Shown: positions 42,048 to 47,511 of the stretch, one piece after another
How positions within the stretch are numbered: the first letter of the stretch is position 1
Layout of the letters: each line of letters starts with the position of its first letter
Sequence record: OQ223305.1
Length of the DNA stretch: 64,000 nucleotides
From: Escherichia phage EO1
Reading direction: 5' to 3' (one strand)
Position numbers and translations under genes: made by a program
Notes under the pieces: generated by a model
Databases searched by the model: none
Told to the model about the DNA's origin: nothing
What the model saw: the letters and a program-made list of their open reading frames with translations, nothing else

Positions 42048-42407
42048 ATGTCTGACATTCATGTAGCTGGAATTGCTCGAGTAAGTATTCGTTGCCAACT
42101 TAAAACTGTACCCGGGACGGCTTATATTAATTTATCACACGACCTATGTTCTAGTGAAAGACCATTAACTGGTGTAATTACGTTTTACGCTGGAGTTGGC
42201 GGAAACGAATTTACTGTAGGCGAATTTGTTGGTCATAAATTAAAAGTTCAGAAGAATGTGTTAGAACTTTTTAATGACCTTTATGATGATAGCGATGAAG
42301 TTTTTGATGAAATCGCACAAGCAGTTAACAAAGGAATGGTAACTTTAGTTAAAATGATTAACTCTATCGGATATGCTCCTGACCCTTTTCGATGGGAGAT
42401 AATATAA
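42048..42407 (+). CDS. hypothetical protein, 119 aa
   Basis: ORF in track. Confidence 0.55.
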   Translation: MSDIHVAGIARVSIRCQLKTVPGTAYINLSHDLCSSERPLTGVITFYAGVGGNEFTVGEFVGHKLKVQKNVLELFNDLYDDSDEVFDEIAQAVNKGMVTLVKMINSIGYAPDPFRWEII

Positions 42408-42499
42408 TTTTTGTATTTGAGTTTATGAATGATGAATTCTATTATGCAATGCTTTAAAAATTGCATAGTCTTGATTTAAATGAATTTGAGGAAAATATA

Positions 42500-43419
<920 letters not shown>

Positions 43420-43439
43420 AATAACACGTGGCGGAAAAT

Positions 43440-43787
43440 ATGAATTTTAATTATTACCCTATTCTATTAGAAAAAGACGCGAAACAACCAAAATGGCAAG
43501 GTCCTCAGTTTATTAAAGGCGTCTATCAATTAGTAGTTCCTAAAGACAAGATTTATAGCAGTTGTTTCACTGAATCCGCTTGTAGTATTTTCGGTAATAG
43601 TTCTCCGTATTGGAATTTTGATATAAAGCTTGACAGAAATATCGATATTTGGTTGAAAGCTATGGATATCGGCAATATCACGTTTGATGAGAATAATTAT
43701 CATATTATTGGTCGCTTTTCCAAGCGTGGTAAAGAATTGTATTTTACGCCTGAAATTGAAAGAAAATTTGATGCTAAACCGTATTGA
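43440..43787 (+). CDS. hypothetical protein, 115 aa, between frd and td
   Basis: ORF in track (alt start 43428); no motif recognised. Confidence 0.5.
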   Translation: MNFNYYPILLEKDAKQPKWQGPQFIKGVYQLVVPKDKIYSSCFTESACSIFGNSSPYWNFDIKLDRNIDIWLKAMDIGNITFDENNYHIIGRFSKRGKELYFTPEIERKFDAKPY

Positions 43788-43831
43788 TTATTAGCTTCAT
43801 AAAATGTATTATAATTTATATAAGGTACTAA

Positions 43832-44692
43832 ATGAAACAATACCAAGATTTAATTAAAAACATCCTTGAAAATGGTTATGAAACCGATGACCGAACGGGC
43901 ACAGGAACAATTGCTCTGTTCGGTACTAAATTGCGTTGGGATTTAACTAAAGGTTTTCCTGCAGTAACAACTAAAAAGCTCGCCTGGAATGCATGCATTG
44001 CTGAGCTAATATGGTTTTTATCAGGAAGCACAAATGTCAATGATTTGCGATTAATTCAACATGATTCATCAATTCAAGGCAAAACAGTCTGGGATGAAAA
44101 TTACGAAAATCAAGCAAAAGATTTAGGATACCATAGCGGTGAACTTGGTCCAATTTATGGAAAACAGTGGCGTGATTTTGGCGGTGTAGATCAAATTATA
44201 GAAGTTATTGATCGTATTAAAAAACTGCCAAATGATAGGCGTCAAATTGTTTCTGCGTGGAATCCAGCTGAACTTAAATATATGGCATTACCGCCTTGTC
44301 ATATGTTCTATCAGTTTAATGTGCGTAATGGATACCTTGACCTTCAGTGGTATCAACGTTCGGTAGATGTTTTCCTCGGTCTTCCATTTAATATTGCATC
44401 ATATGCTACGTTAGTTCATATTGTAGCTAAGATGTGTAATCTTATTCCGGGAGATTTGATATTTTCTGGTGGTAATACTCATATCTATATGAATCACGTA
44501 GAACAATGTAAAGAAATTTTATGTCGTGAACCTATGGATTTATGCGAATTACAATTAAAATTTCCAGATGAATTTGATGAATGGAACACAGAATCGCAGG
44601 TATTTTGGTTGAGTCAATTTGCAAAGCCTCATAATTTTGTTCTTAACAACTATGAATCACATCCTCCTATTAAAGGAAAGATGGCGGTGTAA
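43832..44692 (+). CDS. td: thymidylate synthase, intronless
   Basis: 286 aa continuous; active-site [13 protein letters not shown]; no intron interruption. Confidence 0.92.
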
Positions 44693-44712
44693 TTTTATTA
44701 TTGCGAGGATAT

Positions 44713-44976
44713 ATGATTTTACGATTTAAAGATACTTCTGGTGTAGTTCTTTTTACACTTCCTAATCCAAGCGAGTTAGAAGTTCCAGGACCAAATCAGC
44801 CTATTATCATTTATGGCAAAAAATATTATACTCATAAAATGACTCGTGAGTATTTTGATAATAAAATTTCCACAGTTAAAACTTCTTCTGACTGTTACTA
44901 CGATATTACTGTTTTAACGGAAGAACAATATGAACACTTACAACCGCGCAGGCCGTATATGCCGAGTAGTGAATAA
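44713..44976 (+). CDS. hypothetical protein, 87 aa
   Basis: ORF in track; ATG 44713. Confidence 0.5.
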
Positions 44977-45256
44977 ATATAAATCCGACTTTGATGTTAA
45001 TATTCACCGTGGTACATTTTGGGGAAATTACGTCGGTAAAGATGCTGGCAGCCGGGAGGCTGCCATTGAATTATTCAAAAAAGATTTTATACGTCGAATT
45101 AAATCCGGAGAAATAACTAAAGCACATTTAGAGCCTTTACGTGGAATGAGGCTAGGATGCACATGTAAACCAAAGCCGTGTCATGGTGATATAATAGCTC
45201 ATATAGTTAACCGATTGTTTAAAGACGATTTTCAAGTTGAGGACTTATGCAATTAA
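44930..45256 (+). CDS. hypothetical protein, 108 aa, with C-x-C-x-P-x-P-C-H-G-D signature
   Basis: [18 protein letters not shown] near C-terminus; overlaps neighbours at both ends. Confidence 0.55.
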
Positions 45257-47511
45257 TTAATGTTATCAAAAGTAGTGGTGTTTCTCAGAGCTTTGACCCA
45301 CAAAAAATTATTAAAGTTTTATCTTGGGCAGCTGAAGGAACATCTGTAGATCCTTATGAATTATATGAAAATATTAAATCATATCTCCGTGATGGAATGA
45401 CAACTGATGATATTCAGACTATTGTCATTAAGGCCGCTGCGAATTCTATTTCGGTTGAAGAACCTGATTATCAATATGTAGCTGCACGCTGTTTAATGTT
45501 TGCTCTTCGTAAGCATGTTTATGGGCAGTATGAACCACGTTCATTTATTGACCATATTTCTTACTGTGTAAATGAAGGTAAATATGACCCTGAATTATTG
45601 TCAAAATATTCAGCAGAAGAAATTACATTTTTAGAATCAAAAATTAAGCATGAGCGGGATATGGAATTTACTTATTCCGGGGCGATGCAATTAAAAGAAA
45701 AATATCTAGTTAAAGATAAAACCACTGGTCAAATTTATGAAACTCCACAGTTTGCATTTATGACTATTGGAATGGCATTGCATCAAGATGAACCTGTTGA
45801 TAGATTAAAACATGTTATTCGTTTTTATGAAGCAGTATCCACTCGACAGATTTCACTGCCAACTCCTATTATGGCTGGTTGCCGTACTCCAACTCGGCAG
45901 TTTAGTTCATGCGTTGTTATTGAGGCAGGTGATTCATTAAAGTCTATCAATAAGGCTTCCGCTTCAATTGTTGAATATATCTCTAAACGCGCTGGAATTG
46001 GTATTAACGTTGGTATGATTCGTGCTGAAGGTTCTAAGATTGGCATGGGTGAAGTACGCCATACTGGTGTTATTCCTTTTTGGAAACATTTTCAGACTGC
46101 TGTTAAATCATGTTCACAGGGTGGAATTCGTGGCGGCGCTGCTACTGCTTATTATCCTATTTGGCATTTGGAAGTTGAAAATCTTCTTGTTTTGAAAAAT
46201 AACAAAGGCGTAGAAGAAAACCGCATTCGTCATATGGATTATGGTGTTCAACTGAATGATTTGATGATGGAACGATTCGGAAAGAACGATTACATTACTT
46301 TGTTCAGTCCGCATGAAATGGGTGGAGAGCTTTATTATTCTTATTTTAAAGACCAAGACCGTTTCCGTGAATTATACGAAGCAGCAGAAAAAGACCCTAA
46401 TATTCGTAAAAAGCGTATTAAAGCCCGTGAACTATTTGAATTGCTCATGACTGAACGCTCAGGAACAGCAAGGATTTATGTGCAGTTCATTGATAATACG
46501 AATAACTATACTCCGTTTATTCGTGAAAAGGCACCTATTCGTCAGAGTAACTTGTGCTGTGAAATTGCTATTCCAACAAATGATGTGAATAGCTCTGATG
46601 CTGAAATTGGATTGTGCACGTTATCTGCATTTGTGCTGGATAACTTCGATTGGCAAGACCAAGATAAAATTAATGAATTAGCAGAAGTTCAAGTTCGTGC
46701 TCTTGATAATCTTTTGGATTACCAAGGATATCCAGTTCCTGAAGCAGAAAAAGCTAAAAAGCGTCGTAACCTCGGTATAGGTGTTACTAACTATGCAGCT
46801 TGGCTGGCAAGTAACTTTGCTTCTTATGAAGATGCTAACGATTTAACACATGAACTATTTGAGAGATTACAGTATGGACTCATTAAAGCATCCATTAAGC
46901 TCGCCAAAGAAAAAGGACCTTGCGAATATTATTCAGACACTCGTTGGTCTCGAGGCGAATTACCTATCGACTGGTACAATAAAAAGATTGACCAAATCGC
47001 AGCTCCAAAATACGTTTGTGACTGGTCGTCGCTGCGGGAAGACCTTAAGCTCTTTGGCATCCGTAATAGCACACTATCAGCACTTATGCCATGTGAGTCA
47101 TCTTCCCAAGTTTCTAACAGTACAAACGGTATCGAGCCTCCACGTGGACCAGTCTCTGTTAAAGAATCAAAAGAGGGCTCCTTTAATCAAGTCGTGCCCA
47201 ATATTGAGCATAACATAGACCTCTATGATTATACATGGAAATTAGCTAAGAAAGGTAATAAACCTTATCTTACGCAGGTAGCTATTATGCTAAAATGGGT
47301 TTGTCAATCAGCTTCGGCGAATACATATTATGACCCGCAGATTTTTCCAAAAGGAAAGGTTCCAATGTCTGTAATGATTGATGACATGCTATACGGATGG
47401 TATTATGGCATTAAAAACTTCTATTATCATAATACTCGTGATGGTTCCGGTACTGATGATTACGAAATAGAAACTCCAAAAGCCGATGATTGCGCAGCGT
47501 GTAAATTGTAA
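45247..47511 (+). CDS. nrdA: ribonucleotide reductase class Ia large subunit
   Basis: 754 aa; active-site SNLCCEI; C-terminal DCAACKL. Confidence 0.93.
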   Translation: MQLINVIKSSGVSQSFDPQKIIKVLSWAAEGTSVDPYELYENIKSYLRDGMTTDDIQTIVIKAAANSISVEEPDYQYVAARCLMFALRKHVYGQYEPRSFIDHISYCVNEGKYDPELLSKYSAEEITFLESKIKHERDMEFTYSGAMQLKEKYLVKDKTTGQIYETPQFAFMTIGMALHQDEPVDRLKHVIRFYEAVSTRQISLPTPIMAGCRTPTRQFSSCVVIEAGDSLKSINKASASIVEYISKRAGIGINVGMIRAEGSKIGMGEVRHTGVIPFWKHFQTAVKSCSQGGIRGGAATAYYPIWHLEVENLLVLKNNKGVEENRIRHMDYGVQLNDLMMERFGKNDYITLFSPHEMGGELYYSYFKDQDRFRELYEAAEKDPNIRKKRIKARELFELLMTERSGTARIYVQFIDNTNNYTPFIREKAPIRQSNLCCEIAIPTNDVNSSDAEIGLCTLSAFVLDNFDWQDQDKINELAEVQVRALDNLLDYQGYPVPEAEKAKKRRNLGIGVTNYAAWLASNFASYEDANDLTHELFERLQYGLIKASIKLAKEKGPCEYYSDTRWSRGELPIDWYNKKIDQIAAPKYVCDWSSLREDLKLFGIRNSTLSALMPCESSSQVSNSTNGIEPPRGPVSVKESKEGSFNQVVPNIEHNIDLYDYTWKLAKKGNKPYLTQVAIMLKWVCQSASANTYYDPQIFPKGKVPMSVMIDDMLYGWYYGIKNFYYHNTRDGSGTDDYEIETPKADDCAACKL

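Follow-up and report, generated by a model that had tools for sequence, protein, structure and literature searches.

A conserved small gene of PHROG 1928 between the dihydrofolate reductase and thymidylate synthase genes of T4-like phages

In phage T4 (NC_000866) the genes for dihydrofolate reductase (frd, 145109-145690 on the minus strand) and thymidylate synthase (td, ending at 145112) share a 4-nt ATGA overlap, and td is split by a group I intron and the I-TevI gene. The fused frd/td junction (TATAAATGAAACAATACC) is identical in T4 and RB69 (Mosigvirus), which belong to two genera. In T2, RB14, RB32, RB51, RB68 and wV7 a small protein of PHROG 1928 is encoded between the two genes, and it is the same protein in the same position as in the DNA described here. 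The products of T2 and RB14 are 100% identical to ours and such proteins are recorded under PHROG 1928 or as 'RB32ORF229c' conserved hypothetical proteins. The sequence is therefore already known as a catalogued conserved hypothetical in hundreds of genomes, and the literature covered here on frd/td, RB32ORF229c, T-even accessory genes and pangenomes does not mention the gene.

We analysed a 64,000-nt stretch of Escherichia phage EO1 (OQ223305.1, one strand), referred to throughout as the window, in which an ORF of 115 aa that we call gene A lies between frd and td. The original prediction, made from these letters alone, had described an uncharacterised ORF with exactly this translation separating frd from td and had given the ATGA overlap of T4, and both statements hold against the window and the T4 record.

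Layout and expression signals of the interval

The features of the interval and the paralogs and neighbours of gene A in other genomes are listed in Table 1. The window frd terminates in TAT AAA TGA (stop at 43417-43419) as in T4 and RB69, and is separated from gene A by 20 nt and gene A from td by 44 nt. An alternative in-frame GTG start at 43428 would extend gene A by 4 residues to 119 aa. The td ORF is in one piece and so lacks both the group I intron and the I-TevI gene by which its T4 counterpart is interrupted. Among other phages gene A occurs both with intron-containing td (Lutter, NBG2, ECML-134) and with intronless td, and because related genomes combine it with either form the gene A and td-intron polymorphisms are unlinked.

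Table 1 Positions of features in the frd-td interval of the window and of B and C genes in other phage genomes and contigs
Feature	Position	Strand	Remarks
frd (dihydrofolate reductase)	42838-43419	+	193 aa; 96.2% nt identity to T4 frd
Left direct repeat TAAATGAAATAACAC	43413-43427	+	spans frd stop; 9 nt exact: TAAATGAAA
Mini-ORF ATG AAA TAA (ATGAAATAA)	43416-43424	+	overlaps frd stop (ATGA), read from sequence
Gene A leader	43428-43439	+	GTG and weak Shine-Dalgarno-like GGCGGA at 43430-43435
Gene A	43440-43787	+	ATG ORF, 115 aa and stop
Sigma-70-like pair TTGATT / TATTAT	43784-43789 / 43807-43812	+	17-nt spacing; overlaps candidate MotA-type promoter
Spacer between gene A and td	43788-43831	+	44 nt; 84% A+T against 64.6% in the whole window
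Candidate MotA-type middle promoter ATTAGCTTCA-N12-TAATTT	43790-43817	+	one mismatch to strict MotA-box consensus
Right direct repeat TAAATGAAACAATAC	43829-43843	+	contains td start codon (43832)
td (thymidylate synthase)	43832-44692	+	286 aa; one uninterrupted ORF
B paralog, L005	2817-3173		
B paralog, L006	2059-2493		
B paralog, L007	2317-2676		
B paralog, L008	2248-2643		
B paralog, L009	2287-2634		
B paralog, L010	2314-2688		
B paralog, L011	2309-2656		
B paralog, L017	4332-4673		
Gene C, L015	2548-2754		PD112
Gene C, L014	2626-2754		ACG-C40
Gene C, L017	4670-4879		
Gene C, L007	2673-2879		
Gene C, L008	2648-2854		

The mini-ORF that overlaps the frd stop consists of two codons in the same frame as gene A, is similar to the td start (ATG AAA CAA) and has the appearance of a decayed td start. 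Comparison with the junctions of NHEP29, L017, T4 and RB69 suggests that it may be left over from an older junction or may serve re-initiation, in termination-reinitiation coupling.

The AT-rich upstream region that the original prediction had assigned to td is confirmed by the spacer, which contains promoter-like elements (Table 1) and the td ribosome-binding site (AAGG at 43822-43825). Exact instances of the strict MotA-box middle-promoter pattern number seven in the window. The AGCTTCA core of the candidate promoter is kept in six other T2-type genomes and the record of phage Lutter has a predicted promoter annotated at this position. In contrast the spacer before td in NHEP29 is 15 nt, with approximately 29 nt of the window spacer and the candidate promoter missing, and the fused T4 arrangement cannot have a promoter there. 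It may be that td in T2-type phages has acquired its own promoter. A search for intrinsic terminators across 42300-45300 found none, and an Rfam search of 42700-44800 returned nothing credible, the sole match being a sub-threshold one (E = 0.077) to an insect lncRNA model. In most of the homolog-bearing genomes examined the stop and start codons of neighbouring genes overlap. Judged from this arrangement, gene A and the dihydrofolate reductase gene are transcribed together and, in most genera, coupled in translation.

Outside the interval, an ORF of 126 aa at 42461-42841 (phrog_8592), without a match in a Pfam search, overlaps the frd start by ATGA. The order upstream of frd is unlike that of T2, which has frd.1 and a 246-nt ORF, and unlike that of T4, and as the arrangement differs from both, this side of frd is also variable. 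On the 3' side of td, positions 44701-45256 hold nrdA.2 (DUF5496) and nrdA.1 (DUF4326), which overlap one another and nrdA as they do in T4 and are conserved genes of the nucleotide-metabolism cluster without assigned function.

Distribution and conservation of the family

Gene A matches PHROG 1928, a family of unknown function, with E = 8.4e-36 over residues 4-111 (profile positions 2-125 of 126), and an identical protein is present on 341 contigs, each time named hypothetical. When gene A was compared by tblastn with 50,697 phage records 580 were matched, 362 of them at 90% identity or more (T2, RB14, RB32, RB51 and others) and the remaining 218 below 60%, these more distant homologs coming from phages of Klebsiella, Enterobacter, Salmonella, Citrobacter, Serratia, Erwinia and Edwardsiella. 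At 99% identity or above the gene is carried by 265 phage records. An exhaustive profile search of 1.84e9 representatives recovered only 22 proteins at E<=0.001, of which 20 have lengths of 95-116 aa and the other two are longer, weak partial matches. The family is confined to T4-like phages (Tevenvirinae). Overall the nearest genomes to the window are JLBYU31, RB51, RB68 and wV7 (~97.5%). Family profiles compared with all six frames of the complete T4 genome found no member (best E = 0.17), and the same comparison across the whole window found gene A and no paralog.

A location between frd and td was seen in the window and 12 other genomes or contigs examined, and it holds for every distant genome opened, namely Mineola and ValerieMcCarty04 (Jiaodavirus), PEi26 and Entb_45 (Kanagawavirus), Cronus (Roskildevirus), Moon (Moonvirus), CHI14 (Winklervirus), STML-198 (Gelderlandvirus) and the unclassified Klebsiella phage Biddle_MM4. 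In all of these except Cronus the homolog is directly 3' of frd, usually with its start codon overlapping the stop of frd. Cronus has the opposite order, with a paralog that we call B following frd and the gene A homolog abutting td. Gene A also directly follows frd in NHEP29, which is RB69-like, and in the T4-like metagenomic contigs L017 and L018. Seven or more other Tevenvirinae genera have homologs directly after frd, in many cases succeeded by B and a third small gene, C, and the orthologs in this slot of other genera have 26-66% identity to gene A. The closest relatives outside the T2 group are those of L017 and L018 (63-66%). L017 has the fullest set, frd-A(115 aa)-B(113 aa)-C(69 aa)-td, with each gene overlapping the next, and the L018 contig stops within or just after B.

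Paralogy of B and A is indicated by a full-length hhalign match (probability 99.6%, E = 2.6e-24), and B also matches PHROG 1928. It is 113-144 aa long with an insertion of ~19 aa (ALVxDGxxPTIDQYKRNP) following the QKKW motif. The B proteins (PEi26 ORF-252, Moon gp253, CHI14 ARW57658, Cronus AWD90399) share the QKKW, HGxY and GRFxKxG motifs with A but, unlike A, B is absent from the window and from all T4/T2-like records examined. Gene C encodes 68-69 aa (MSNKLKVKDVP...), belongs to phrog_9550 (function unknown), has no match in a Pfam search and lies immediately before td in several other genera.

The state of the junction was surveyed with a 101-nt probe joining the end of T4 frd to the start of td, which matched 511 T4/T2-like (Tequatrovirus) records, 372 of them on both halves. 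In a sample of 60 rows taken across the ranking the halves were ~516 nt apart in 40, indicating that gene A is present, contiguous in 3 and represented by the frd end only in 17. The fused junction was counted with a 40-nt probe able to seed only across it and was found in 32 records, around half being T4 isolates and the others close relatives such as RB55 and RB59. For the 511 records this gives estimates of ~340 with gene A, ~139 with the frd end only and 32 fused; in the two frd-end-only examples examined (PD112 and ACG-C40) gene C alone lies between frd and td. The fused T4 junction is therefore the exception, because most T4-like phages carry gene A there. The original prediction had called the ORF a lineage-specific insertion inside a conserved operon, which describes the distribution the wrong way round since gene A is the majority state and the fused junction is rare, and the ORF is conserved at this position across T-even genomes and in the same slot in many genera. 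The frd of NHEP29 is 97.6% identical at the nucleotide level to that of RB69, yet NHEP29 carries gene A, overlapping frd by ATGA, and as RB69 is fused both junction states occur in both lineages.

Comparison of gene A with four other T2-type alleles gave 14-16 synonymous and 0-2 non-synonymous differences (dN/dS 0.00-0.02), and dN/dS across all pairs was 0.00-0.07. In dN gene A (0-0.007) is below both frd (0.009-0.036) and td (0.007-0.074), whereas in dS (0.26-0.31) it equals or exceeds these flanking genes in most pairs, so it is more constrained than either. Among the T4/T2-like alleles compared its synonymous rate is not unusually low. Taking these points jointly we are highly confident that gene A is a genuine and strongly constrained gene of PHROG 1928 whose position between frd and td is ancestral.

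Predicted fold and possible function

The gene A product is a hydrophilic protein of 13.6 kDa with a pI of 8.5, the A family as a whole having a median pI of 8.8 and a net charge of 0 to +5. The absence of a recognisable motif reported in the original prediction was borne out by Pfam, NCBIfam and PADLOC scans, none of which gave a match at E<=10. A search of the gene A profile against PDB sequences yielded only noise (E >= 0.08) and word-indexed protein searches only unnamed phage proteins lacking Pfam domains. Structure prediction, which together with homology searches had been named as a way to check the ORF, gave a confident AlphaFold2 model from a 25-sequence alignment (pLDDT 91.7, pTM 0.84) with predicted strands at residues 6-12, 27-34 and 62-64, a helix at 68-77 and further strands at 80-82, 86-96 and 99-104. 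No solved structure was significantly similar to this model, OB folds being weakly alike, and its matches in a BFVD structural search include the B proteins of Cronus (144 aa) and Muldoon. The order of elements, strand-strand-strand-helix-strand-strand, fits that of an OB barrel when read from secondary structure.

Residues conserved across A and B (L9, Q16, W19, G27, Y29, G91, R92, F93, K95, G97 and F102) occupy three places in the model: the loop that follows strand 1, the beginning of strand 2 and the final hairpin. In OB folds these same elements make up the usual binding face. Judged from their secondary-structure positions in the model, the conserved aromatic and basic residues may form one binding surface. 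The product would then be a soluble, non-catalytic, beta-rich protein with one helix and an OB-like strand order, which would act by binding and not by catalysis through a surface made up of the invariant W19, G27/Y29 and the G91-R92-F93-x-K95-x-G97 hairpin. Its partner would be a co-expressed phage protein of deoxynucleotide synthesis or replication, or single-stranded nucleic acid. As T4 and RB69 grow in the absence of the family, the protein would have a dispensable role, as an accessory or tuning factor. Where A and B are adjacent it can be speculated that they might form a heterodimer by analogy with the small OB subunits RPA14/32.

As the likeliest reading we tentatively propose that the gene A product is a non-catalytic binding protein tied to the nucleotide-precursor or replication machinery. 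This agrees with the lack of catalytic family matches in the Pfam, NCBIfam and PDB sequence searches. However, the modest net charge is weak for a nucleic-acid binder, gene overlaps are common in phages whatever the function so that coupling to frd is no proof of a shared pathway, and presence/absence polymorphism in close relatives is also typical of accessory host-interaction genes. The explanation as a whole, weighted towards function, we regard as possible rather than probable. A more far-reaching version appears rather unlikely. In it the A and B proteins would regulate the T-even machinery of deoxynucleotide synthesis or replication, or be an accessory subunit of it that has gone unrecognised, as an OB-like adaptor binding DHFR, TS, gp32 or single-stranded nucleic acid; alternatively they would have a novel fold and a novel target in the host. 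Were the accessory-subunit or regulator reading true, seventy years of T4 genetics would have missed such a factor because T4, together with a few relatives, deleted the whole cassette.

The main rival to the binding factor proposed here is a host-takeover or counter-defence protein. It would bind a host factor, for example part of a defence system or a host enzyme acting on nucleotides or nucleic acids, and neutralise or redirect it, and the frd-td interval would be no more than a convenient early-expressed slot. A small protein without enzymatic signature that is missing from the laboratory model T4, varies in presence among very close relatives and within two genera (T2 against T4, NHEP29 against RB69), shows cassette-like lateral exchange and shares its interval with the variable small genes B and C would suit such a role. 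Conservation is however unusually high for an arms-race gene, as seen in the 265 records at 99% identity or more and the near-zero dN, and the position is kept across at least eight genera infecting different hosts. PADLOC, a library of defence and not anti-defence proteins, gave no match at E<=10. On balance we consider a host-directed role unlikely, if the most serious competitor. The same PADLOC result argues against identity with a known anti-phage defence protein.

History of the interval and comparison with known systems

A repeat search identified an imperfect 15-nt direct repeat (family D1) with a spacing of 416 nt and 87% identity, and removal of one copy and the interval from the window produces the exact T4 junction. 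NHEP29 has an equivalent 8-nt repeat (TAAATGAA). The boundary between presence and absence of the cassette falls at this stop/start repeat of 8-9 nt (TAAATGAA[A]), which allows precise loss or exchange of the cassette. The 9-mer TAAATGAAA has 11 sites in the window, including 43413 and 43829, against 4.2 expected from shuffles. Since this motif commonly marks stop/start junctions, the repeat lends itself to exact deletion or exchange whether or not it is an insertion scar, and we set aside the 15-nt repeat as proof of such a scar. TAAATGAAA could provide microhomology for cassette loss or exchange elsewhere in the genome too.

Between the window and NHEP29 (L020, 117-1745) gene A is 90% identical in nucleotides and 94% in amino acids, with a dS of 0.59 against 1.7 for frd and a saturated pS of 0.75 for td. 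This dS lies far below the divergence of the flanks, which argues for lateral exchange of the cassette between genera and supports at least one such movement. To this extent the idea of an insertion in the original prediction stands, while lineage-specific entry into a fused operon does not.

We read the family as ancestral in the frd-td slot, with repeated loss and occasional exchange of the cassette among co-infecting T-even phages. T2-type genomes including the window would have kept A only, other Tequatroviruses C only, and T4 and RB69 none of the three, resulting in the frd/td ATGA overlap. The leader of gene A in the window is similar to the frd 3' end of the metagenomic relative L017 (GGTGAAAAGCG), as is the T2-type leader GTGGCGGAAAAT to the L017 frd tail; the L017 frd ends in YGEKR* and overlaps A. 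Against this history, the T2-type frd end (YK*, ATGA) equals that of the fused T4 and RB69 genomes, and an insertion could have produced the 15-nt repeat by duplicating the 5' end of td.

Alternatively gene A could be a recent, moron-like insertion of one lineage into an otherwise fused operon. T4 and RB69 share the fused junction although they belong to two genera, the T2-type frd end of the fused type is followed by the 15-nt near-copy of the td 5' end, and the between-genera dS of the allele, far under that of the flanks, means that at least one lineage gained its copy laterally. A recent insertion is nevertheless improbable when gene A is the majority state in T4/T2-like records (~340 against 32), when orthologs with 26-66% identity share the slot in many genera and metagenomic relatives have a fuller A-B-C cassette, and when the 9-mer is common enough that the repeat need not be a scar.

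In BASEL phages AugustSocin and TadeuszReichstein and Klebsiella phage ValerieMcCarty04 the gene is labelled 'putative homing endonuclease'. A free-standing enzyme of this kind, cutting genomes that lack the gene and spreading by repair, would explain a patchy distribution between conserved genes like that of the T4 seg and mob genes, and the G(I/V)YxL motif at residues 27-31, the sole basis that we found for the label, resembles the GIY of GIY-YIG enzymes. Such an identity is very improbable and effectively excluded by the lack of a nuclease domain in sequence or fold: Pfam gave no GIY-YIG, HNH or LAGLIDADG match at E<=10, hhalign against I-TevI gave 0.6% probability over 8 aligned columns, neither a YIG nor a catalytic Arg or Glu is conserved across the family in the order that such enzymes show, and no nuclease fold was among the structural matches. 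At 115 aa the protein also has no DNA-binding domain, and the position is fixed across genera, unlike that of homing endonuclease genes. For the labels 'putative dihydrofolate reductase' and 'putative glucose-1-phosphate adenylyltransferase' in other records no support was found. Inconsistent annotation of gene A affects MZ501052, MZ501106, OR271596, OK272473, OK272476, OK272484, PQ571308 and AY310907.

That gene A is a spurious or non-functional ORF in an intergenic spacer, as might be taken from the T2 GenBank record (AY310907) which leaves it unannotated, is effectively excluded and already refuted by dN/dS of 0.00-0.07 at dS up to 0.31-0.59, by invariant residues across genera and by the confident predicted fold.

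Our results correct a T4-centred view of the frd-td operon, in which the textbook overlap is a minority and derived-looking state (32 of ~511 related records) and the gene usually present is under tighter purifying selection than the neighbouring enzymes, yet has no assigned function. As T4 lacks the family it is unusable for studying gene A, and T2 or RB51/RB68-type phages are the right models. The interval is a small, defined site of loss and exchange of A, B and C and, being bounded by stop/start microhomology, lends itself to studies of the exchange of small genes among T-even genomes.

Of the known systems, the T4 GIY-YIG endonucleases (I-TevI, SegA-G) have in common with gene A an intergenic site, patchiness and a GIY-like tripeptide, but gene A differs in having no nuclease domain and a position conserved across genera. 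The genes frd.1 (DUF5417), frd.2, frd.3, nrdA.1 (DUF4326) and nrdA.2 (DUF5496) are likewise small, on the same strand, within the gp32-frd-td-nrdA cluster, conserved and without assigned function; they are present in T4 and have Pfam entries, whereas the gene A family is absent from T4 and has none. Small OB-fold proteins, including bacterial SSB, RPA14/RPA32, Stn1-Ten1, RMI1/2 and S1 domains, are recurrent weak structural neighbours of the gene A product and resemble it in size and in their arrangement of three strands, a helix and two strands.
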